Position numbers and translations under genes: made by a program. The notes beneath the pieces were generated by a model, which had not been told where the DNA came from, made no database searches, and saw only the letters and a list, made by a program, of their open reading frames with translations. 64,000 nucleotides of DNA from Candidatus Scatocola faecigallinarum (GTDB taxonomy: Bacteria > Pseudomonadota > Alphaproteobacteria > RF32 > CAG-239): positions 67,158-131,157 of the forward strand of contig DVOM01000001.1 of the NCBI GenBank assembly GCA_018713605.1, read 5' to 3'. Of the stretch, positions 4,867 through 58,991 are shown piece after piece (positions within the stretch are counted from its first letter, which is position 1; each line of letters begins with the position of its first letter).

Positions 4867-5841
4867 TCAGTATTTCTCCTTCAACATCTGCCGCAGATAA
4901 CAAACCGAAAGCAGGACTGCCGCCCGGGTCGGCTCGCTGGCGGCAATGCCGTTCAGCATCAAAAAGTCGTGAATTGTACCGTTAACCCGCAGCGATGCTG
5001 TTTTTACGCCGGCTGCGGACAATTTACGGGCATAGGCCTCCCCCTCATCGCGCAACACGTCATTTTCCGCCGTAATTACCAGCGCCGGCGGCAATCCTCT
5101 CAATTCTTCAGCCGTCGCGTTCAACGGCGAGGCATAAACCTCGTTGCGGCGCGCCATATCCGGCAGATAAGCGTCCCAAAACCATGCCATCGCCTTCGCC
5201 GTCAGCCATGGACCTTCGGCAAAATCAAGATAAGAATCCGTATCCATGGCAGCATCGGTTACCGGATAATAAAGCAACTGACAGGCAATTTCGGGAAAAC
5301 CCTTTTTCTTGGCCATCATCGCCAAAACCGTCGCCATGTTGCCGCCGACGCTGTCGCCGGCCAGTGCCACCCGGGAACTGAAATTATATTCCCGGCTATG
5401 CCGCGCAATATGTTCCAGAACCGTAAACATCATATTAAGCTGTTCGGGATACTGTGCCTCAGGCGCCGGTTCATAAACCGGAAAGACCACCGCCGCATTG
5501 GCACCGACGGCCAGTTCGCGAATAAGCCGGTCATGCGTATTTTCATCACCCATTACCCAGCCGCCGCCGTGAATATAAAAAATAACCGGCAACCGAATGC
5601 CTGCATCTTCCGGACAAATCAGGCGTATTCTGGCTGCACCGCCGTTCTCCAGCGGAATGTCAATGTCTTTGATGTCAACGATGCCCTTCTCGACGCAAAT
5701 GTCCTGAACATCTCTCAGAACCTTGCGCGCAGCGTCATAGCCGATTTCATGCAACGGCCGGCCGCCTTTTGCCGTCAAAGAACGGATAAAAGCCTCGACC
5801 TGAACGTCCAGATTAGGATTTTGTGAATTTGCCCTGCTCAT
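4867..5841 (-). CDS. Alpha/beta hydrolase, hormone-sensitive-lipase-like esterase (Aes family)
   Basis: HGGGW oxyanion motif. GDSVGG nucleophile elbow. Confidence 0.85.
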   Translation of the reverse strand: MSRANSQNPNLDVQVEAFIRSLTAKGGRPLHEIGYDAARKVLRDVQDICVEKGIVDIKDIDIPLENGGAARIRLICPEDAGIRLPVIFYIHGGGWVMGDENTHDRLIRELAVGANAAVVFPVYEPAPEAQYPEQLNMMFTVLEHIARHSREYNFSSRVALAGDSVGGNMATVLAMMAKKKGFPEIACQLLYYPVTDAAMDTDSYLDFAEGPWLTAKAMAWFWDAYLPDMARRNEVYASPLNATAEELRGLPPALVITAENDVLRDEGEAYARKLSAAGVKTASLRVNGTIHDFLMLNGIAASEPTRAAVLLSVCYLRQMLKEKY

Positions 5842-5881
5842 ATTTTTCTCCTTGCCAGTAAAAAAATATGAACTGCCGCAC

Positions 5882-6772
5882 TTATTTCAAGACCATAAAC
5901 ACACCTGCCGTAATAAAAACAAAACAAATGCTCTTGCGCAGCAGATGAACTGTCGAAACGTCCTCTTTGAACCTGTTGCCGAACAGGGCATACAAAGCGG
6001 CGCCGATTCCCAAAACAAACAGCGGCTGCGTGGAATTGATGCTTTCGACAGCGACCACCGGCAGCAACGACATGGCAAATATGGATGCAACCGTCCCGAC
6101 CTGATTCACAAACTCATTCAGACCGAAAACATAAAATTTCGTCTTATAACGCGGAAAATTCGCCTTAATGTTCAGCCGGACGATACGAGGCATCAAAAAA
6201 CCGAAAACCGTCAACGTCGAAAACAGTGCCGAATAGAAGACCGCGCTTATCCAGTCTATCTTTTCCAGCGCGTACTTGTACAAAACCGCCTGCAGCGAAA
6301 GCAAAAGCGACGACAGCAGCATCAGATAAAAGGCTTTGTTGATTTTTATTTTCCGCGGATTCTCAATATTCAGGACCACACTGGCAGCAATGATGATTCC
6401 GAAACCGGCATATTGGACAAAGCTCAGTTTTTCATCAACCATAAGGTAAGCCAGCACCGGCACCAGAACATAGCCAAGCGAGAACCAGGCCACAACGACC
6501 GAAGTATCGCCGCGGCGCAGTGCCTCATAATAGGGTATCTGGTAAAAAACGTCTATCATGCCGACAAGAGCCAGCAGCGGCATAATCTCCCATCCGTACC
6601 ATTGCGGCAGTCCGAAAACCAAAACCATCGGCGCCGCGAAAAAATTGGTCAGACAGTTGTAAAAAATCAACGTCGGCAGCTTTCGAAACACATTGTTCGA
6701 CAAATGCGCGTCAATAATGTTTGATACGGCATGAAACAACGGACATAAAAAAGCGGCAATAACGGCAGGCAT
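5882..6772 (-). CDS. DMT/EamA-like permease
   Basis: 296 aa, about 10 transmembrane segments. The start codon overlaps the stop of the upstream mpg gene (TAATG). Confidence 0.7.
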   Translation of the reverse strand: MPAVIAAFLCPLFHAVSNIIDAHLSNNVFRKLPTLIFYNCLTNFFAAPMVLVFGLPQWYGWEIMPLLALVGMIDVFYQIPYYEALRRGDTSVVVAWFSLGYVLVPVLAYLMVDEKLSFVQYAGFGIIIAASVVLNIENPRKIKINKAFYLMLLSSLLLSLQAVLYKYALEKIDWISAVFYSALFSTLTVFGFLMPRIVRLNIKANFPRYKTKFYVFGLNEFVNQVGTVASIFAMSLLPVVAVESINSTQPLFVLGIGAALYALFGNRFKEDVSTVHLLRKSICFVFITAGVFMVLK

Positions 6773-50462: not shown

Positions 50463-52541
50463 TCACAAGGTATATTTGTGCCTGTTGAGAACATGACGCT
50501 GATACTCGGGCGCCAATTCGGTAAAATATCCGCTCCAGCCCCAAACACGTACAATCAAATTCCTGTGATTTTCCGGATGAGCCATCGCGTCTTCCAGAAC
50601 AGCGGCATCAAGCACATTTAGCTGCAATTGCTGGTTTCCGACATGAACAAAATATTTAATCAGATTAACCAGTTTTGAAATTCCTTCGTCATACTTGAAA
50701 ATTGTCGGCGAAAGTTCAATCGTAATCGGACCGCCGTTGACAATTCTGGAATAGTCTATCCCCGCAAAGGACTTTAAAACACTTAAAACCCCATTAATTT
50801 TAACACCATGTGCCGGTGCCAGACTGGCAGACAGCGGCTCCCCGGCTCCGCGCCCGTCTTCAGAAGCGCCTATATAAGGCAAATCGGCAGAAACGGGCTG
50901 CGTCAGCAGGATATAAAACATCGCGGAACCTGAACCGGGACGGATACGGCTCCGGCGCGTAGAAATCATCTCGGCAGCCAGCGCAAATGAATCAAACAAA
51001 AATTTCAAATTTCGATTGGAAACCGCATCATTGTTTCCCAGTTTCGGCAGTTTTGTTTTCAAAAACGCCTTCAGTTCCTCATAACCGCAAAAATTCTTTT
51101 TCGTCGCCCTGTACAGTTCCTTCAATTTCGCATGAGGATAATTATCGGCAAAATATTCAATCGCTGTCATCATATCCGCGGCATTGGAACTTCCCGCTCC
51201 GTGAATGCCTACATGATGATATTTGCTGGCAAATTCCACTTCTCTTGCTTGCTCCAAAGCGCCATCAACAAAAAGACACCCCAATGGACATGGCAAAAAA
51301 TGTATATCGCACACTTTTTGAATATGCCTGATTTGACGCCACATATCCCATTTAATCAGCTGTCGAAACAAAAATTTTGAAAAAAGCGGCAGTTTGACAG
51401 CCAGTTTAAAAGCCCTGTGCACGGCATAAGGAAAAGACACGGCGCTTTTATTGACAATTTCCACGCCCTTGCTCGGAATAACAAATTCCCAACAGGCCGC
51501 GACAGTATAGTTACGTGCATCTTCCAACGAATAGCCGTTTTTTACCAAAGCAGGTATAACGACCTCATCATTCGAATATTGCGGAAACCCCAAACCGCAT
51601 TCGGTCAGCATACAGGCCGTTTTCAGCAAATCATCGGGCGTGTTCCGATCAATTCGCAAATTTATTTTCGGATCTATCAGCTTTAAGTCTTTCGAAACCT
51701 CCATCATCAGATAGGTCAGTTCATTAACGGCAGGGTTCCCCTCCCCGTCACAGCCGCCCAGCATAACCGTCTGTCCGTTGTCTCCCTGCTGGACGCCAAA
51801 GTATGTATCGCTGTCACGGTTAAAAGAAATGAAAAATTCAGCAAACAAATCCCGCGCCTGTTCTTTGGTCAGCGTTTTTCTCTGCAAGTCTCTCAGATAA
51901 AAAGGATACAGATACTGATCCATGCGCCCCAAACCAATATGCGCGCAACCGGCATAATACAGCAACGCACTCATTAATCGAATAGACTGCATTGCCTCCT
52001 GCAGCGTCTTGGCACCGTACAGAGGAACCCGACGAAAACTTTCCGCCACCGAATGATTTCCGGCGGCTTCGGCTGCTGCCTCATAACGTTCGGCAAGGTT
52101 GGCAACAGCCTCGATGACGATGACAGCCGCTTCCAAAAAATCACGTTTTTGTTTATCTTTGGTTTTTGACAGTTTTTCTCGACAGAGTTCCAAACGGCCG
52201 GATAAGCCCTCGTTCAGGAGCTTTTCCCAATTTATGGTCAGATTGTTCAACGGGTGCAGTACTGCATCCTTTTCCACACCCAACGCTTTTTTTGCCTCCT
52301 TCGGCTCGTAATATGCCGGAACATTGTTGACGGTTCGGACAAAGGAAATCTTTTCGTCAGGAAAGACAATCGGCTCCAAAGCCTCACAGGAAATTTTAAA
52401 AGCAAGAGCGGCCCTTTTTTCCAAAGACAGATTTTTGCCCTTGAACTCGCCGACAAAATCAAATGTCCAGTCATGCCTGTATTTTTTGAACAGACGCTGC
52501 TGCGTAAAATCTCTCAACTCGCGAAGTCTTTTATTTAACAC
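50463..52541 (-). CDS. Glycyl radical enzyme (PFL2/glycerol-dehydratase-like family), substrate unknown
   Basis: C-terminal glycyl-radical motif VRVWGWSGYFTELAPEYQRHVLNR, which aligns with RVAGYSAFFVEL...PEMQRE. Cys loop AACWEF (C-x-E). Start set at the GTG at 52541, preceded by AAGGAG with a 6-nt spacer. Overlaps the activase stop. Confidence 0.85.
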   Translation of the reverse strand: MLNKRLRELRDFTQQRLFKKYRHDWTFDFVGEFKGKNLSLEKRAALAFKISCEALEPIVFPDEKISFVRTVNNVPAYYEPKEAKKALGVEKDAVLHPLNNLTINWEKLLNEGLSGRLELCREKLSKTKDKQKRDFLEAAVIVIEAVANLAERYEAAAEAAGNHSVAESFRRVPLYGAKTLQEAMQSIRLMSALLYYAGCAHIGLGRMDQYLYPFYLRDLQRKTLTKEQARDLFAEFFISFNRDSDTYFGVQQGDNGQTVMLGGCDGEGNPAVNELTYLMMEVSKDLKLIDPKINLRIDRNTPDDLLKTACMLTECGLGFPQYSNDEVVIPALVKNGYSLEDARNYTVAACWEFVIPSKGVEIVNKSAVSFPYAVHRAFKLAVKLPLFSKFLFRQLIKWDMWRQIRHIQKVCDIHFLPCPLGCLFVDGALEQAREVEFASKYHHVGIHGAGSSNAADMMTAIEYFADNYPHAKLKELYRATKKNFCGYEELKAFLKTKLPKLGNNDAVSNRNLKFLFDSFALAAEMISTRRSRIRPGSGSAMFYILLTQPVSADLPYIGASEDGRGAGEPLSASLAPAHGVKINGVLSVLKSFAGIDYSRIVNGGPITIELSPTIFKYDEGISKLVNLIKYFVHVGNQQLQLNVLDAAVLEDAMAHPENHRNLIVRVWGWSGYFTELAPEYQRHVLNRHKYTL

Positions 52542-53310
52542 GTTTTTCTCCTTCCATATGAACCCGATACCCTTTTTCCTCTGCCGTTTTTTTAAAACGG
52601 CGGATAATATCCATATCGTTTCTGATACCTTTGTGAAGCTGAAACCTTTTACCGAAAGTTTCATATTTTGCCCCGGCCAGTTCATTGTAGGGCAACAAAT
52701 CTATACTTTCCGGCCTGTTAGGAAGTTTCTCTAAAATACGGCCGATTCGATTTAAATTATCTTCTGTATCGGTTATTTGCGGAATCAGCGGAATTCGGAC
52801 ATGGAAAGGAATTGCCCTTTCGGACAAAGCCATCAGGTTATCCAGAATTATGCGGTTGGACTCCCCCGTATATTTCCGATGTTCCTCATCATCGGCAAGC
52901 TTTACGTCAAAATAGACCTTACTGAACATTGCTGCCAGTTTTAAAAACTTTTCGGCATCGCAATACCCCGAAGTGTCCAGTATCGTATGTATATCGGTCA
53001 GCTTTGGCAGCAGTTCCGTCAGAAAATCAGCCTGGCAGGACGGTTCTCCTCCCGAAAAAGTCACGCCGCCGCCGGAAAGTTCAAATACGTCGCGAAAAGA
53101 ATTTAACCTTTCCGCCAACCTGTCCGCCGTCCAGTTTTCTCCGCAGATTTCTCTGGTTTTCAAATTAAGTTCGGGAAAAAATTCCTGAGTTTCCGGATTA
53201 TGACACCACCGGCAGCGTAACGGGCACCCTTTCAGAAATACGGTAACCCGAATACCCTCCCCGTCATGAATGGTAAATTCCTTTATGTCACAAATACAGG
53301 CCGTTTTCAT
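52531..53310 (-). CDS. Glycyl-radical-enzyme activating protein (radical SAM)
   Basis: CPLRCRWCHNPE gives the CxxxCxxC cluster. 259 aa, typical size. Immediately upstream of the GRE. Confidence 0.85.
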   Translation of the reverse strand: MKTACICDIKEFTIHDGEGIRVTVFLKGCPLRCRWCHNPETQEFFPELNLKTREICGENWTADRLAERLNSFRDVFELSGGGVTFSGGEPSCQADFLTELLPKLTDIHTILDTSGYCDAEKFLKLAAMFSKVYFDVKLADDEEHRKYTGESNRIILDNLMALSERAIPFHVRIPLIPQITDTEDNLNRIGRILEKLPNRPESIDLLPYNELAGAKYETFGKRFQLHKGIRNDMDIIRRFKKTAEEKGYRVHMEGEKRVK

Positions 53311-54446
53311 TTATAGCTTTTATATTTCTTCTTATACTTCTGCTTAACTTTTCCCAAAGTCGCACAATACAGCATTCTGAAAAACAGATATTTCAGAAAA
53401 CTCTTTTTACCGGATTGCATCTGTTCTATGCGGACAATGCCGCTTTCCACCTGAGACAAACGGTTTTCCAGCCACCGGAGACGATTTTCGTTCTCATATT
53501 CCTTCAACGGACACATCGCTATCGGAAAAGGCAGCTTAAGAAACCGCTCATACGCCAAACGCATCTGCGGCAGCAAATCTCTGTTCTCTTCGCGCTGGGT
53601 AAAGAAACAGATGTGAACCATCGGCACGCTCAAATCCGCTACAATTTTCTTATTGTTTTTCCGACAATAGGAATAAGTCTGATATTCGTCGTCCGTATGC
53701 CCGATGTTAATGTCCGTCCAAAAAGACTTCTTAAAAAGCATACAGTTTATCGAATACCTCTCCCTGTTGTCGACTTCCCGATACGGCAGTTTCTGAACTG
53801 CCCGGACGTAGTCTTCCGGATGCAGCGTCGTCTGATTGTGAATCCATCTGGCGTAAAAAGGCAAAGCCCAAACGCTTCCGCCGCCGCCCGGATGTATTCT
53901 CCCCTTTTCCACAAAACGATACTTCAGGGAATCATTATCGTTCTTCACACCAATGTAATGCGCTACCGATATTTTCTGAAACTCGCCATCCAGCCCCATC
54001 GCTTCGACAACCTGTTTAAATCCCCAGGGGTTGTTGTTGACTAAGGACGTAACATACCCAAGTTTCCGCCCATACTTACGATACGAATTCTCGTAACAGG
54101 CAATCAGTTTTTCAAGCCAGTCGGACGTCAGCGGAAAAACGTCGTCGTCAACTTTGCAGATATAGTCATAGGACTTCATCTCGTCGCTTTCAAGCAATGT
54201 CTTAATACTGACAAAGGGCGCGCCGGGCTGAATCCAATCGACAACCGTAATCTGTTTCGGAAACATCTTCTGATACCGCAGACAAACCCTGTATGTCCTT
54301 TCCGTATCATATGTTCCCCGTCCGTTTTGCAGCAGATAAATATGAACATTCGGATTGGTCAGCTTCGTATAGGCTGCCAACGCAATTTCCAGGGCTTCAT
54401 AATCAGCATAACATAACTGAACAATCGCAATTTTCTTCAAGTTCAT
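53307..54446 (-). CDS. Putative glycosyltransferase (DxD-containing), unknown family
   Basis: 379 aa. KVDDDVFP motif. ATGA overlap with the activase start. Sits in a glycan operon. Confidence 0.4.
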   Translation of the reverse strand: MNLKKIAIVQLCYADYEALEIALAAYTKLTNPNVHIYLLQNGRGTYDTERTYRVCLRYQKMFPKQITVVDWIQPGAPFVSIKTLLESDEMKSYDYICKVDDDVFPLTSDWLEKLIACYENSYRKYGRKLGYVTSLVNNNPWGFKQVVEAMGLDGEFQKISVAHYIGVKNDNDSLKYRFVEKGRIHPGGGGSVWALPFYARWIHNQTTLHPEDYVRAVQKLPYREVDNRERYSINCMLFKKSFWTDINIGHTDDEYQTYSYCRKNNKKIVADLSVPMVHICFFTQREENRDLLPQMRLAYERFLKLPFPIAMCPLKEYENENRLRWLENRLSQVESGIVRIEQMQSGKKSFLKYLFFRMLYCATLGKVKQKYKKKYKSYK

Positions 54447-54455
54447 TTTACTTTC

Positions 54456-55493
54456 CTATATTTTCTTACCGTTAACCGTCATCGGCAAACTGTTTTTCAG
54501 TTTCTGCCGGTACGCTTTTCGCATTTGTTTAAACTGCCGCCTTTTTTCGCCCGCACACACTTTTGACAAAAGATAATATCCGAAATACCGGCAGCGCATT
54601 TTCCAGAGGCTTTCCTGATCAACGTCCGTATTCTGAACCATCATCACATCGGCTTCATAAGCTCTCATTCCCTTCTTCTCAATCATATACTGGAAATAGG
54701 CCGAATACAGCAGCTCGCCCAAATATGCAATTGTCCGCTTTCCGTTCGGCGAATATTCAGACACATCAAGAATCCGGTTAAAACCGGACAAAATCGGAAA
54801 TACAAAACCGGCATATTCCATAAATATCTTTTTGGAAGTTATCATCGACATATAAAGATATTTTTTCGGCTTGTATGAAAGCTGCTCCATAAAATTGCCA
54901 AAATCTTCATCTGCGGTTTTCACGTAAGCGATAAAATTTTCATAATCTTTCAGTTTGGTCCCTTCGATTCTGGCTGTAAAATCTTCTCTGATATCTTTCA
55001 GATTAATCAAAGAAAAATCCGAAAGACGCGGTAGCACCACGTCATATTTCTGCAACAGGGACAAAACGTTTTTTTCCGAAAGTCCCATTAAATCCAAATA
55101 CCGCTTGTCCGGGCTGCTCATCGTAAACATTGAATAACACCGGTCATGATTGTTTCTTTCAATATCTTTTCCCAAGGAACTCAAAATCAACTGCCGCCGA
55201 TACTGCATAAATCCGATAAAATCAGGATTTCCGACCGCGTCAAAATTCTTCCACGCCCAGTATTGAACCGTCATTTCGCAAAAATTTCGATTCAAACGGG
55301 AAATATTGTCACCACTATCATCGCCAATCGTATTCTTTTGCATCCACTTAATCTGTTCCGGCGTCAAAAAACCGTCCCGGGACTCTGACATTGCCACTGC
55401 ACGGCCGGCATGTACAGGAATCAACAAATCGTTTTTAAACAAATAAGTCGGCTTAAAATACGCCAACAGAATTTTGACTTTAGGTTTTACCAT
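54456..55493 (-). CDS. DUF4422-like protein, putative galactofuranosyltransferase, copy 2
   Basis: CEMTVQYWAWKN and the N-terminal pattern are paralogous to 38641..39489. Confidence 0.55.
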   Translation of the reverse strand: MVKPKVKILLAYFKPTYLFKNDLLIPVHAGRAVAMSESRDGFLTPEQIKWMQKNTIGDDSGDNISRLNRNFCEMTVQYWAWKNFDAVGNPDFIGFMQYRRQLILSSLGKDIERNNHDRCYSMFTMSSPDKRYLDLMGLSEKNVLSLLQKYDVVLPRLSDFSLINLKDIREDFTARIEGTKLKDYENFIAYVKTADEDFGNFMEQLSYKPKKYLYMSMITSKKIFMEYAGFVFPILSGFNRILDVSEYSPNGKRTIAYLGELLYSAYFQYMIEKKGMRAYEADVMMVQNTDVDQESLWKMRCRYFGYYLLSKVCAGEKRRQFKQMRKAYRQKLKNSLPMTVNGKKI

Positions 55494-56602
55494 TAATACA
55501 ACTCCTTAAACAAAGCCAATGCTCTCGCAACGGCAACATCCATATTGTAATATCTGTAATCGCCCAACCGGCCGAAGAAATGAACATTCTTGCAATTTTC
55601 GGCCAGAAGCAGATACCGATTGTACAATTCAAGATTTTTATCTTGCGGAACGGGATAATACCGCTCATTTTTTCCGCGTTCGAAAGCCGCCGGATATTCC
55701 AGCGAAATAACCGTCCTGTCGGACTTGTCGTTGAGAAAATACTTATGCTCGCAAATACGCGTAAAGTCATAATTGTTCGGATAACTTACCACAACGCCGT
55801 TCTGAAAATAAGGCGTATTCTCCTCTCTGATGTCAAACTCCAAACTCCGGTAAGGAAGTTCTCCCAGCTCATAGTTAAAAAACTCGTCAATCGGCCCCGT
55901 ATAATAGACATTCTCCGCTTCAAAATTCTCCGCGTCATAAGGCGTATTCAACCTTACCTCAATAAGCGGATGAGCCAGAATATTCCCAATCATTTTGGTG
56001 TATCCGTCCTGCGGAATGGCCTGATAGCGGTCGACAAAATAGTCGTCATTGGTGGACACGCTCACGGGAACGCGTTCGGCAACCGCCGGATCCAGTTCTT
56101 CCGGCGTTACGCCCCACTGCTTTTTATAATAATTCAGAAAACCTTTCCGGTAGATGTAATCCGCCAGAAAAGACAGGTCGGCGTCATCCTGCTCTCTGAG
56201 TTTCAAAATGGACAGCCGGTTGCCGTATCCGACAATATTGATAAGTTTTTGGCTGATTCTCTGCGCCATGTCTTCGGGAAAGCATTTCTTCAAACTGTTC
56301 AGATTAAACGAAAACGGAACCGTCTTCCCGTCAATGTAAGCCTGTACTTTCAGAAAAAACGGATGCCATTTGGTAAAACGCGACAAATAATGCCAGACCT
56401 CTCCGTTTGAGGTATGAAAAATATGCGGTCCGTATTTATGAATGCAAATGCCGTTTTTATCCCGATAATCAAAACAGTTTCCGCCGATATGTCCTCTGGC
56501 GTCAATAACCAGAACCGGCTCATTCAAAACGCCTGCAATCCGTTCGGCCATAACCGCGCCGGACAAACCGGCGCCGACGACCAGATGTTTAATCTTGCGC
56601 AT
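55493..56602 (-). CDS. glf: UDP-galactopyranose mutase, copy 2
   Basis: 369 aa. LVVGAGLSGAVMA FAD motif. Roughly 60% identical to copy 1 over its length. Confidence 0.9.
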   Translation of the reverse strand: MRKIKHLVVGAGLSGAVMAERIAGVLNEPVLVIDARGHIGGNCFDYRDKNGICIHKYGPHIFHTSNGEVWHYLSRFTKWHPFFLKVQAYIDGKTVPFSFNLNSLKKCFPEDMAQRISQKLINIVGYGNRLSILKLREQDDADLSFLADYIYRKGFLNYYKKQWGVTPEELDPAVAERVPVSVSTNDDYFVDRYQAIPQDGYTKMIGNILAHPLIEVRLNTPYDAENFEAENVYYTGPIDEFFNYELGELPYRSLEFDIREENTPYFQNGVVVSYPNNYDFTRICEHKYFLNDKSDRTVISLEYPAAFERGKNERYYPVPQDKNLELYNRYLLLAENCKNVHFFGRLGDYRYYNMDVAVARALALFKELY

Positions 56603-57425
56603 AGGCTTTTTCCTTATGAAGTTTCAGATAATTCATCAACACCGACCTGTTGCGGCGACAGCTGTCAGACAGTTCCTGAGGTGTAAACGGCGATACGAAC
56701 CGGTGCAGTTTGTCCACGTTCAGAACAAACTGATCCCGCGGCGGAACGTTTCCCTCAAAGAAAATATGTTCTTCGCCGACAATGTCTGTCAGAAGTCTTT
56801 CCAAAGACAGGGCAAAACCGGCTCCGACATTGATTATCCCGGACACTTTCTTATGAATGAGAACACTAAGCGCCTTTTGCAGATAATCTCTGGTAATAAA
56901 ATCTTTCCTTGTTTCCGGATTCTCCGTAACAATCAGCTTGCCACGGGTTAAAATGCTTTCGCTGATCCACCCCATAAAGGTCTTATATCCCGTCCTGTTG
57001 ACCGGTTCACCCAAAACGTTAGCCACCCGTACAATCAGAGATTGTCCCGGAATTATCCCCTGAATAGCCTTTTCGGCTGCCGCCTTGTTTTTGGCATAAG
57101 CGTCAAGCGGCTGCAACGGCGCTGTCTCGGCAATCTCGTCAGCCAAATTCCGGGAACCGTAAACTTTGCGGGAAGAAATCATTACCAGTTTTGTCTCCGA
57201 ACCTTTTATCATCCGAGCCAGTTTTACGTCCAATAACTCGTCCTGCGACAACGTTTTACAGCTAAACTCCGGCTGTATCGTAAAATTAATAACAGCGTCA
57301 AAACGCTTTATTTCCTCTTTGTCGACATAATCCAGCCTTGGAAAACTCATAACGTCGTCCGATATGAACACGTTTTGCAAATTCCGAGCTAAATAGGCGT
57401 CATTACCGATTACAGCCACTTTCAT
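56589..57425 (-). CDS. NAD-dependent epimerase/dehydratase (SDR) family protein
   Basis: N-terminal KVAVIGNDAYLARNL Rossmann motif. 278 aa. Confidence 0.7.
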   Translation of the reverse strand: MKVAVIGNDAYLARNLQNVFISDDVMSFPRLDYVDKEEIKRFDAVINFTIQPEFSCKTLSQDELLDVKLARMIKGSETKLVMISSRKVYGSRNLADEIAETAPLQPLDAYAKNKAAAEKAIQGIIPGQSLIVRVANVLGEPVNRTGYKTFMGWISESILTRGKLIVTENPETRKDFITRDYLQKALSVLIHKKVSGIINVGAGFALSLERLLTDIVGEEHIFFEGNVPPRDQFVLNVDKLHRFVSPFTPQELSDSCRRNRSVLMNYLKLHKEKAYAQD

Positions 57426-57546
57426 TTTGTTACCTTTTCAAACAACGCCCAAATATTCCGCGTCGGTTTGGTCACAGACAGAACCGGAACCAGCCCCCGT
57501 TTTCTGTCTCTCTTTGTTTTCAGCCTTTTAGCCAAACTGCCGCACC

Positions 57547-58173
57547 TCACGAATATTGAGTATGGTCGCGGTTTTCGGCATTTTTACTCTGCAACAAACG
57601 TCCGACTTCGGGATTTTGAGCCAGAAAGTTATAAAGCGACACGACGGAAATACCGGCTTCCTGTGCTGCCCTCTTTCGCGAAACGCCGGACAGCAGCCTG
57701 GAAACGATAAGCTCTTTCTTCCCGTCCCAAACACGCTTTTTATTCTTGCTGCCCAAACAGCGCCCGAGTTTGCAGCCGCTCGCCTTTTTCTCGTCAAGAG
57801 AGTTTTTGGTAATCGTCGAAACCATGCTGTTGCGTATTTCAATAGACAAAGCCAGCCCCTTCAGCAGCAAATCGGTTTCCGAAGACGGCTTTAGAACCAG
57901 CTTTTCCTTAACACAGACCAGATTCAGCCCTTTTCCGAGAAACGCCTTCAGATTTTCAACAATCACCGCCAGAGAATTTCCCAAACTGGCAACATTGGCG
58001 CACAAAACCGTATGCCCGGTCGTTTGAAAACCGGCTTCCATATTCCGTATATCCGTTTCCGAAACATACATGTCGACGGCAAAATCATTGTCTGCGGCAT
58101 ATTGTTCAATTACCCGCCGCTGTTTCTCAACCGCAATGTTTTTTCCGCCAATGTCCAAATACCCGATAACCAT
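57547..58173 (-). CDS. Serine-recombinase paralog with degenerate catalytic residues but a retained C-terminal HTH; putative regulatory pseudo-recombinase. It is the first gene of glycan operon 2.
   Basis: MVIGYLDIGGKNIAVEKQ in place of the MxxGYxRVSTxxQ nucleophile motif. ASLGNS in place of SRLGRN. The HTH RKRAAQEAGISVVSLYNFL is retained. It is co-linear with the adjacent intact invertase. Start set at the ATG preceded by GAAGG. Confidence 0.7.
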   Translation of the reverse strand: MVIGYLDIGGKNIAVEKQRRVIEQYAADNDFAVDMYVSETDIRNMEAGFQTTGHTVLCANVASLGNSLAVIVENLKAFLGKGLNLVCVKEKLVLKPSSETDLLLKGLALSIEIRNSMVSTITKNSLDEKKASGCKLGRCLGSKNKKRVWDGKKELIVSRLLSGVSRKRAAQEAGISVVSLYNFLAQNPEVGRLLQSKNAENRDHTQYS

Positions 58174-58197
58174 ACAAACCTTCGCCATCATACCATC

Positions 58198-58214
58198 TAA
58201 CGAACGATATTTTT
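58198..58214. repeat. Left 17-bp inverted repeat taacgaacgatattttt
   Basis: Perfect reverse complement of 58326..58342. Confidence 0.9.
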
Positions 58215-58325
58215 TCTTGTACTTTATGTGGGTAATTTTTGCAATACCTTTTTATAAGAAATCACAATAATTTTCTACCTTTTTTATAGGTTAACACATT
58301 TTTCTCTACCGGTAACGCCTTGGGC

Positions 58326-58342
58326 AAAAATATCGTTCGTTA
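58326..58342. repeat. Right 17-bp inverted repeat aaaaatatcgttcgtta
   Basis: Perfect reverse complement of 58198..58214. Its core CGTTCGT resembles a recombinase half-site. Confidence 0.9.
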
Positions 58343-58391
58343 AATTTACAAACATCAATTATTGCTGTTTTTCTATATGAAATACAACCTG

Positions 58392-58991
58392 TTAAGCTTT
58401 AGGTATACCTGCAAGAAAATTATAAATCGTTTTACTGCTTACCTTCATAATGCGGGCAATCTGCGCCTTTTTCATTCCACCCTGATATAAACTGATTATC
58501 TCATCCTCTCTGCCGTCAAGAATATGCCTTTTGTTCTTCGTGCCGAATTCGCGCCCCAGTTTGCGTCCGCTGGCCTTGATTCTGGCCAGAGCCTCTTTGG
58601 TTCTCTGTGAAATAAGATTACGTTCAATTTCCGCCGAAAGCGAAAACGCAAAAGCCAGAACCTTGCTTTGAATATCAGCTCCGAGCCGATAGCGATCTTT
58701 AATTGTCCAAACCTGAACTTCTTTGTTCATACAGATGTTAAGCATTGTCATAATCTGCAAAATATTGCGCCCCAGACGGGAAATTTCCGTACAAATCAGC
58801 ACATCGCCCTTTTTAAGTTTCCTGATCATTTTTCCAAGTTTCCTCTCTTCAAAATCCTTGGTTCCGCTGATTGTCTCCGTTATCCATCTGTCAATTTGTA
58901 TTTTTTCCCCAGTACAAAAATTATTGATTTCAAATTTCTGATTCTCAAGTGTCTGCCTGTCCGTACTCACTCTGACATATCCGTATATCAT
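58392..58991 (-). CDS. Small serine recombinase (DNA invertase, Hin/Gin/Mpi-like) with intact catalytic residues
   Basis: MIYGYVRVSTDRQ carries the catalytic Ser. SRLGRN and AEIERNLISQRT are present. C-terminal HTH KAQIARIMKVSSKTIYNFL. 199 aa from the internal ATG. Confidence 0.85.
   Translation of the reverse strand: MIYGYVRVSTDRQTLENQKFEINNFCTGEKIQIDRWITETISGTKDFEERKLGKMIRKLKKGDVLICTEISRLGRNILQIMTMLNICMNKEVQVWTIKDRYRLGADIQSKVLAFAFSLSAEIERNLISQRTKEALARIKASGRKLGREFGTKNKRHILDGREDEIISLYQGGMKKAQIARIMKVSSKTIYNFLAGIPKA

Follow-up and report, generated by a model that had tools for sequence, protein, structure and literature searches.

A predicted catalytically dead serine-recombinase homologue heads phase-variable glycan operons in gut alphaproteobacteria and might act back on their DNA switches

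In the window, the whole 64,000-nucleotide stretch of DNA analysed here, the minus strand carries, from high to low coordinates, a DNA invertase gene, a 200-bp spacer that holds a pair of inverted repeats (IRs), an open reading frame (ORF) of 208 amino acids, a series of sugar genes and a radical-SAM/glycyl-radical pair (Table 1). The product of the 208-codon ORF is a homologue of the invertase that is predicted to be catalytically dead, and it is called the dead protein below. The mechanical ORF of the invertase reaches 59078. Among the sugar genes, the DUF4422 protein belongs to a family that we take to be glycosyltransferase-like. The radical-SAM activase and the glycyl-radical enzyme are co-directional and contiguous, and may thus extend the same transcription unit at its distal end. 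Between the dead gene and the next gene, a search for an intrinsic terminator, an attenuator or a known RNA gave nothing significant (fold z-score -1.19, no Rfam match). Loci from other assemblies that were compared with the window are numbered with the prefix L.

Table 1 Features of the invertible switch and of the genes downstream of it, in the order in which they are read on the minus strand
Feature	Coordinates	Strand	Basis or remark
Mpi-family serine DNA invertase, predicted active, 199 aa, MIYGYVRVSTDRQ...	58392..58991	-	Pfam, NCBIfam and catalytic residues
IR arm, invertase side, AAAAATATCGTTCGTTAAAT	58326..58345	.	20 nt, 95% complementary
Invertible interior, 111 nt, putatively promoter-bearing	58215..58325	.	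Flipped in L023, L028-L037 and L008
Candidate outward promoter TTGCAA-N17-TACAAG	58216..58244	-	Analogy with L012, L017, L018, L006 and L038
IR arm, operon side	58195..58214	.	Ends 21 nt ahead of the start codon of the dead gene
Mpi-like serine-recombinase paralog, predicted catalytically dead, 208 aa, first operon gene	57547..58173	-	
NAD-dependent epimerase/dehydratase-like gene, second in operon	56589..57425	-	Pfam PF01370
UDP-galactopyranose mutase (Glf)	55493..56602	-	Pfam PF03275, 1.5e-67
DUF4422 protein	54456..55493	-	Pfam PF14393, 4e-39
379-aa protein	53307..54446	-	Without a family match; runs in the same direction as its neighbours, closely packed with them
Radical-SAM activase and glycyl-radical enzyme	50463..53310	-	Pfam PF04055; PF02901 and PF01228

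Judged by its sequence, the window invertase is a true Mpi-family enzyme. It matches Pfam Resolvase (4e-33) and HTH_7, scores 303 bits on the NCBIfam model NF009949, 'master DNA invertase Mpi family' (cut-off 272), and carries all of the catalytic residues R7, S9, R72 and R75. The two 20-nt IR arms that lie between it and the dead gene are 95% complementary and 111 nt apart, and within the 64 kb their pattern is confined to these two places, with a chance expectation of 0.13. The IR core TCGTTCGT resembles ARACGTWCGT, the presumed Mpi IR consensus.

The orientation of the segment was compared with that in eleven other assemblies of the same species, namely JGI contig L023, which is collinear with the window and 99-100% identical to it in the flanks, and the ten ENA/NCBI assemblies L028-L037, which have the same gene order. 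The interior is reverse-complemented relative to the window in all 11, with an identity of 98-100% when flipped and about 30% when unflipped, and the window therefore has the minority orientation (1 of 12 assemblies). The segment is also flipped relative to the window in the related locus L008, whose dead protein is 79% identical, and a 151-bp segment is inverted between L014 and L022. The L015 contig begins inside the proximal IR arm, as expected of a mixed population. The segment of ~150 bp occurs in both orientations in nature, and the switch is real.

A strict sigma-70 scan of the window segment reported no promoter. The candidate promoter in Table 1 is a weak match, below the threshold of that scan, which abuts the proximal IR and is directed at the dead gene. 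Outward promoters were found in sister loci at one end of the segment, reading out across the repeat: TTGACT-N18-TATAAG in L012, TTGCAT or TTGCAA-N17-TATGAA in L017 and L018, TTGAAA-N17-TAGAAA in L006 and TTGACT-N17-TATGTT in L038. As the window candidate sits as it does in these sister loci and points at the dead gene, we infer the ON state for the window and the OFF state for the other eleven assemblies. The -35 hexamer TTGCAA is palindromic and could serve either direction, and a TTGCAA-N18-CACAAT match exists on the opposite heading. By analogy with the sister loci, the segment would carry an outward promoter, and the dead protein would be made only when the switch is ON. The dead gene starts 21 nt past the proximal IR. 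An initial annotation of this DNA had placed it at the head of a switched operon, and the analysis supports this placement, the operon being under a putative invertible promoter.

The dead protein and the window invertase align from end to end (27% identity over 198 aa, E 3e-26 in BLASTP), as the initial annotation had stated. The strings that it had set against each other were all found, namely YVRVSTDRQ and YLDIGGKNI, EISRLGRN and NVASLGNS, and TIYNFL and SLYNFL, the second of each pair being that of the dead protein. The nucleophile motif of the dead protein, YLDIGGKNI, departs from Y-x-R-x-S-[ST]-x-x-Q. Substitutions were read from an alignment that set the window protein beside 21 active relatives and 89 relatives that lack the motif. 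In gamma-delta numbering, R8 is replaced by D, the nucleophile S10 by G, Q14 by I, D67 by A, R68 by S, R71 by N and R125 by I, and the E-R pair of the E-helix has become R and N. The nucleophilic serine and at least one of the conserved arginines had been described as lost, with S10, R68 and R71 as the positions to check, and G, S and N indeed stand in their place. Y6 and Q19 are unchanged, as are the glycine in the S-R-L-G-R box and, in the E-helix, the S and T. The dead protein is barely above the gathering score of Pfam Resolvase (24.5 bits against 23.3), and this match begins at profile position 16, with the nucleophile motif outside it. Its sole NCBIfam match is the Mpi model NF009949, on which it scores 81 bits against a cut-off of 272 and is not a member. 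From its sequence, the dead protein is a catalytically dead serine-recombinase homologue in which all the residues needed for DNA cleavage are replaced. It has a recombinase fold, yet it should not be filed as a recombinase, because it lacks the nucleophile and the arginines and stays below the Mpi cut-off.

Some copies of the gene are damaged, which could suggest a pseudogene in decay, or else a second active invertase disfigured by errors of sequencing or assembly: the database variants P0002 and P0003 have frameshifted C-termini, and the L016 copy is broken into two ORFs. However, the dead gene is nucleotide-identical across 11 independent assemblies of the same species, and no R-x-S-[ST] motif was found in any reading frame between 57400 and 58400. 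A frameshift or a misplaced start, either of which might have restored an RVST-like motif, is ruled out by these two results, and the loss is real, as had been claimed. The start codon given in the initial annotation, at 58173 (MVIGYLD...), is favoured by the family alignment and has an AAGG ribosome-binding site ahead of it. Among pairs of diverged family members with estimable dS, dN/dS is 0.08-0.26, which points to purifying selection, in keeping with the earlier view of a gene that is retained, and rules out a pseudogene. In addition, the same catalytic substitutions are common to ~80 clusters at 50% identity. Refuted by dN/dS, by these common substitutions and by the identical assemblies, the pseudogene or artefact explanation is excluded, and we assign it a negligible probability.

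Structure prediction suggests that the loss of catalysis did not extend to the architecture of the protein. An AlphaFold2 model of the dead protein, built on six family members (mean pLDDT 80.6), has a beta-alpha catalytic domain followed by a 34-residue helix (residues 98-131) and a disordered arm, and then three short helices (residues 153-186) and a longer C-terminal helix. The best Foldseek matches of this model are full-length Sin (2r0q), gamma-delta resolvase and Tn3 resolvase, with 5cy1 and 1gdt among these best structures (probability 1.0, E ~1e-7). When a profile was built from 18 family members, it matched Sin from end to end (E 0.005) and, separately, the Hin DNA-binding domain (1hcr, E 0.005). 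The fold with its long E-helix and the arm with its helix-turn-helix (HTH) are both features of small serine recombinases, and the G-R arm ahead of the HTH is conserved in the dead family as KLGR..GSKNKK. Thus, the model and the profiles indicate that the complete small serine recombinase architecture is kept, with the catalytic-domain fold, the E-helix, the arm and a Hin-like HTH. The retention of the DNA-binding part, which had been proposed from the letters of the sequence, is supported by the 1hcr match and by the three helices at 153-186, and the dead protein very probably binds DNA. In a Pfam search with E up to 1, it gives only Resolvase and HTH_28, and no NusG or KOW domain.

The dead protein is a member of a large family. 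A word-indexed search returned eight clusters only; an exhaustive profile search brought the number of 50%-identity cluster representatives to 34 at E <= 1e-30 and to 341 at E <= 1e-10. The best 150 matches include 89 full-length library representatives without Y-x-R-x-S, or 90 with the window protein, and of the residues R8, S10, R68 and R71 none is kept in 57 of these 90 and one is kept in 22. Across 18 members, the block at the start of the E-helix, LSI[DEG]IRNSMVS, varies at a single position, and the HTH, too, is well conserved. Catalytic domains of dead proteins are 39-93% identical within the family and 21-31% identical to any active invertase. Since they are nearer to one another than to active invertases, the dead proteins form, on sequence comparison, a large family of their own, an ancient sister to the invertases that derives from Mpi-type enzymes and is conserved and diversified. 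The initial annotation had called the dead protein a paralog of the adjacent invertase; this holds in so far as the two are homologous, and fails if a recent copy is meant. A recent tandem duplication of the neighbouring gene is ruled out by the 21-31% identity of the catalytic domains and by a family that is monophyletic and old.

Where members of the family have a recorded name, it is 'hypothetical protein' only, and their source organisms are given as Alphaproteobacteria bacterium, Azospirillum sp. and Pseudomonadota bacterium. The window dead protein is indexed in 2438 blocks of an assembly collection, and the contigs read for those blocks are from human-gut or other metagenome assemblies, some of them over 1 Mb. 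In a collection of species-representative genomes, 13 of the 13 loci are in metagenome-assembled genomes (MAGs) of 'Alphaproteobacteria bacterium', with 2-3 loci per MAG, and a scan of JGI metagenomes added three further loci only. A phage origin was considered and rejected: IMG/VR contains no relatives of the dead protein, and matches in annotated phages and plasmids are only 24-29% identical, the annotated ones among those listed being labelled recombinase or resolvase.

The association of dead genes with switches recurs. IR pairs of 13-23 nt, with arms 84-154 nt apart, lie ahead of the dead gene and end 13-48 nt short of its start codon in the window and in L006, L008, L011, L013, L014, L016-L022, L025, L027 and L038, and a shorter IR pair was read by eye in L012. 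An intact invertase is found directly upstream in 11 loci (the window, L006, L008, L010-L013, L019, L021, L022 and L027). The family pairs with two types of invertase: type I enzymes are on the same strand and have the IR core AACGAACG (the window, L008, L010 and L012), and type II enzymes are divergent and have the IR core AAACCACCGTTT. L018 and L020 have IRs but lack a neighbouring invertase, so that one supplied in trans is implied. In L016, the locus with the split dead gene, the intact invertase has been lost as well.

The dead gene stands first in a glycan operon at nearly all loci; these operons include GT2, RgpF, RmlA, DegT and TupA types of genes, and stop and start codons often overlap. 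One branch of the family (L038/L039) is an exception to this position and is CRISPR-adjacent. Some members have no nearby invertase or IR. No inverton-type IR pair was found upstream of the dead gene in L001-L005, L009 (whose contig ends 94 nt upstream) and L024. Where upstream sequence exists for these members, the neighbour is a Peptidase_S24 repressor-like gene and not an invertase, and L005 and L024 lie inside an apparent integrated element, with an integrase in L005 and DUF6291 in both. These IR-less members are still at the head of glycan operons.

What might such a protein do at a switch? The reading that we tentatively favour, with a confidence that stays somewhat short of even, is that the dead protein, produced in the ON state alone, would serve as a DNA-binding subunit without catalytic activity and feed back on inversion. 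The promoter in the segment would drive its synthesis only in the ON orientation. A dimer of the dead protein would then bind recombinase-type sites, either the IRs or related sites at this and sister loci, or, alternatively, the dead protein would assemble with the active invertase into mixed oligomers. Lacking the Ser and Arg residues, a dead subunit would be incapable of cleavage, and inversion would become orientation-dependent. The simplest outcome would be a latch that slows ON-to-OFF inversion, and the protein may also freeze sister switches. As the proximal IR sits between the promoter and the dead gene, the same binding could also damp transcription of the dead gene's own operon. We favour feedback on inversion because a dead copy that dimerises and binds sites would be at once a dominant-negative subunit, and because the whole recombinase architecture appears to be kept, including an E-helix block that varies at one position. 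The dead gene also abuts the repeat in most loci, and in the type I locus of the window the DNA-binding part is the most enzyme-like region; both speak for such feedback. Extended to the whole family, the proposal is held with a little less confidence: dead proteins may be built-in feedback elements, in which an ON-only pseudo-enzyme occupies recombination sites or poisons invertase tetramers and so latches and coordinates several glycan invertons and, in one branch, a CRISPR adaptation module.

Several observations speak against feedback on inversion. The inverton-less members listed above are one of them, and the divergence of paralogs within one genome, which a simple global freeze would not require, is another. 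The third comes from the C-terminal part of the family. Arm and HTH occur in two types, A and B, which are ~26-45% identical to each other. The window protein has type A, which is 37-49% identical to type I invertases, so that this part is nearer to those enzymes than the catalytic domain is. Type B is 25-37% identical to type II invertases and 28-37% identical to type I, and hence no closer to type II. Type A also adjoins type II invertases, whose DNA-binding domains differ strongly. L014 (type A) and L022 (type B) have the same IRs and segment, and their dead proteins are 93% identical in the N-terminal part and 34% identical in their C-termini, with the breakpoint at the end of the E-helix. 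Given this distribution and the pair L014/L022, the DNA-binding domain of the dead protein was not found to track the domain of the neighbouring enzyme or the type of IR. A simple recognition of the IRs by the HTH is spoken against by these sequences, because the domain types swap at the same IRs and because some members have no inverton.

A second reading is a locus-specific transcription regulator, a recombinase re-used for DNA binding alone, that would repress or activate promoters of its own or sister glycan operons, coordinate several phase-variable loci in this way and have no effect on inversion. It would be similar in role to UpxZ/UpxY of Bacteroides, and in mechanism to Tn3 resolvase (TnpR) as a repressor at res. 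This reading is nearly as likely as feedback, and it accounts better for the members without an inverton and for DNA-binding domains that shuffle independently of IR sequence. It also fits the place of the dead gene, which is the first gene of a glycan operon everywhere but in the CRISPR-adjacent branch, loci without IR or invertase included, and the presence of 2-3 divergent copies per MAG, one for each glycan locus. In L012, L015 and L022, moreover, a second protein, made of many HTH repeats, is encoded directly after the dead gene. However, a whole catalytic fold and a near-invariant E-helix block exceed what an HTH repressor needs, although they could serve as a dimerisation module. A conserved operator beyond the IRs was not found, and most members lie tightly against an inverton, at 13-48 nt; both points speak against this reading.

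A third reading keeps the action on inversion and reverses its sign. The dead protein could be an accessory or architectural subunit, similar to a directionality factor, that stimulates inversion from the ON state and makes this state short-lived, in the manner of the resolvase dimers at res sites II/III or of the Fis enhancer for Hin. We consider this improbable. The retained recombinase fold with its E-helix would suit such a role, the ~150-bp segment seems to leave no room for a classical Fis-type enhancer, and 11 of the 12 same-species assemblies are in the inferred OFF orientation. At other loci, however, the presumed ON and presumed OFF orientations occur with similar frequency. Furthermore, Mpi inverts its promoters in B. 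fragilis, where, to our knowledge, no dead partner protein has been described.

Compared with known systems, switch and enzyme belong to the established Mpi kind, here outside Bacteroidales, and the new part is the conserved pseudo-recombinase component. In B. fragilis, Mpi flips 13 regions, of which seven are PS promoters, and is the single PS-promoter invertase (PMC4747536). The window shares with that system an invertase that passes the Mpi-family cut-off of NCBIfam, short IRs around a putative promoter segment of ~150 bp upstream of a glycan operon, and loci with IRs and no local invertase, such that one enzyme probably serves several promoters. It differs in its host, a gut alphaproteobacterium, in its promoters, which appear to be of the sigma-70 type (TTGnnn-N17-TAnnAn), and in the first switched gene, which here encodes the dead protein and there UpxY/UpxZ.

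The initial annotation had likened the role of the dead gene to that of UpxY/UpxZ, the first two genes of Bacteroides PS operons. Both stand at the head of several phase-variable glycan operons, with one divergent copy per locus, and a role in coordinating loci is plausible for the dead family as well. The likeness is one of gene position, and there is no relationship of sequence or fold; the dead protein is without the NusG and KOW domains and hence not a UpxY, and it probably binds DNA as its ligand in place of RNA polymerase or an antiterminator. A closer parallel in fold is offered by the Tn3 and gamma-delta resolvases, with res sites II/III and a resolvase that represses tnpA/tnpR, and by Sin at its site II (2r0q, 5cy1 and 1gdt). 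The idea of recombinase dimers placed on DNA for regulation or architecture and not for cleavage is the same, but there one active protein does both jobs, whereas here a separate and, as predicted, permanently dead gene would be expressed from the switch itself. The fim switch of E. coli is similar in that a recombinase-family protein is expressed, or acts, according to orientation, which biases switching. However, FimB and FimE are active tyrosine recombinases, whereas the state-dependent protein here would be a dead serine recombinase. The pairing of an active and an inactive serine recombinase at an invertible element had been thought to be undescribed, and a search of full-text literature yielded no account in which a dead serine recombinase accompanies an inverton.

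From a biological perspective, phase variation of surface glycans in gut bacteria affects resistance to phages, immune recognition and colonisation, and the coordination of several stochastic DNA switches is understood only for Bacteroides, with UpxY/UpxZ. The host in this study is a very common and barely studied alphaproteobacterium of the human gut, in whose lineage each switched glycan operon starts with a conserved dead relative of the switch enzyme. If the dead protein does act back on inversion or on sister loci, it would represent a new design principle for bistable DNA switches, and a regulatory layer without counterpart in the Bacteroides, Hin/Gin or fim paradigms. It could then also provide a natural and portable orientation-dependent inhibitor for synthetic recombinase memory circuits. 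A family of ~80 or more clusters of 'hypothetical protein' thereby gains a name and a testable role. Finally, at type II loci, where the invertase is divergent, the OFF orientation may aim the promoter at the invertase gene, and the switch would then alternate between expression of the enzyme and expression of its dead relative.

At the type II loci, those in which the active invertase gene diverges from that of its catalytically degenerate relative, the switch may serve two outputs. In the OFF orientation, that is, opposite to the one inferred to face the dead gene and the glycan genes (ON), the invertible promoter of L011, L013, L019, L021, and L022 is aimed at the divergent active invertase gene. 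Therefore, a single promoter may alternately drive the enzyme (OFF) or the dead relative together with the glycan genes (ON). A conserved box, CCTATATAAAATAGACACTC, is located just outside the distal repeat.

The switched operon would also encode a second predicted DNA-binding protein, the approximately 332-aa product of the gene that directly follows the dead recombinase at three loci (see table). In L012, repeats of a resolvase-type HTH unit make up nearly the whole of this protein, with many weak matches to HTH_7, HTH_38, and HTH_23. The L015 and L022 genes were assigned through a weak match to the invertase, and the L022 gene is also 78% identical to that of L012 at the DNA level.

Several loci may carry damaged or rearranged switches. 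The invertase of L014 is reduced to a C-terminal remnant and its segment lies in the inferred ON orientation; this switch may therefore be fixed in the ON state. L016 has a truncated invertase, and its dead gene is broken into two ORFs. L010 retains a same-strand, type I invertase and the dead gene, and no clear inverted repeat was seen at positions 5786-6041 of this locus, where TTAATGATCG occurs in two direct copies and one imperfect inverted copy; these repeats may represent a degenerate or rearranged switch.

Locations of the features discussed in this part
Feature	Locus	Positions	Strand
CRISPR-adjacent candidate inverton module	L038	4858-7700	
CRISPR-adjacent candidate inverton module	L039	4858-7700	
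~332-aa protein gene directly after dead recombinase	L012	5380-6378	
~332-aa protein gene directly after dead recombinase	L015	639-1637	
~332-aa protein gene directly after dead recombinase	L022	7614-8618	
Invertase remnant	L014	7500-7740	-
Truncated invertase and broken dead gene	L016	7299-8711	
Region with inverton-less family member	L005	266-4723	
Region with inverton-less family member	L024	1358-4006	
Region with inverton-less family member	L001	5606-6501	
Region around the end of similarity to the window	L023	3265-6904	
Glycyl-radical enzyme (PFL-like, 740 aa) and radical-SAM activase	window	50463-53310	-

A distant dead-like member of the family, P0206 (186 aa), is found next to a CRISPR system in two assemblies (L038 and L039). 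Its gene starts 23 nt behind a pair of perfect 15-nt inverted repeats, and the 84 nt between the arms carry an outward promoter (TTGACT-N17-TATGTT). Downstream lie cas1 and then a CRISPR array in which some 15 repeats recur with a 66-nt period; cas2 and cas9, encoded on the other strand, are convergent. This arrangement may constitute a phase-variable CRISPR adaptation/array module; the orientation of the segment is identical in both assemblies.

Another set of family members lacks an inverton; here, a Peptidase_S24 (LexA/CI-like) gene precedes each member at a distance of 68-70 nt. The DUF6291 genes adjoining those of L005 and L024, with a phage integrase also present in L005, suggest a glycan-modifying module borne by an integrated element.

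Near the C-terminus, two database variants of the window's protein, P0002 and P0003, shift into the frame of window ORF 57528-57842, after ...FLAQ and ...GSKNK, respectively. The change in P0003 would remove the HTH. Sequencing errors may account for these variants, or they may be loss-of-function alleles that occur naturally. The likeness of L023, a contig of the same species, to the window ends within the epimerase-like gene (window position ~57190), and beyond it are unrelated genes (one for a C-terminal UvrD fragment, the other for a class IV aminotransferase). Either the glycan operon was deleted or replaced, or the contig is chimeric.

In the window itself, a glycyl-radical enzyme and its activase directly follow the glycosyl-transfer genes in the same direction, a pair not normally associated with surface-glycan operons. 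Most long ORFs lie on the minus strand, and GC skew is negative in 32 of 32 2-kb windows (-0.04 to -0.24), reaching -0.09 or lower in all but one.
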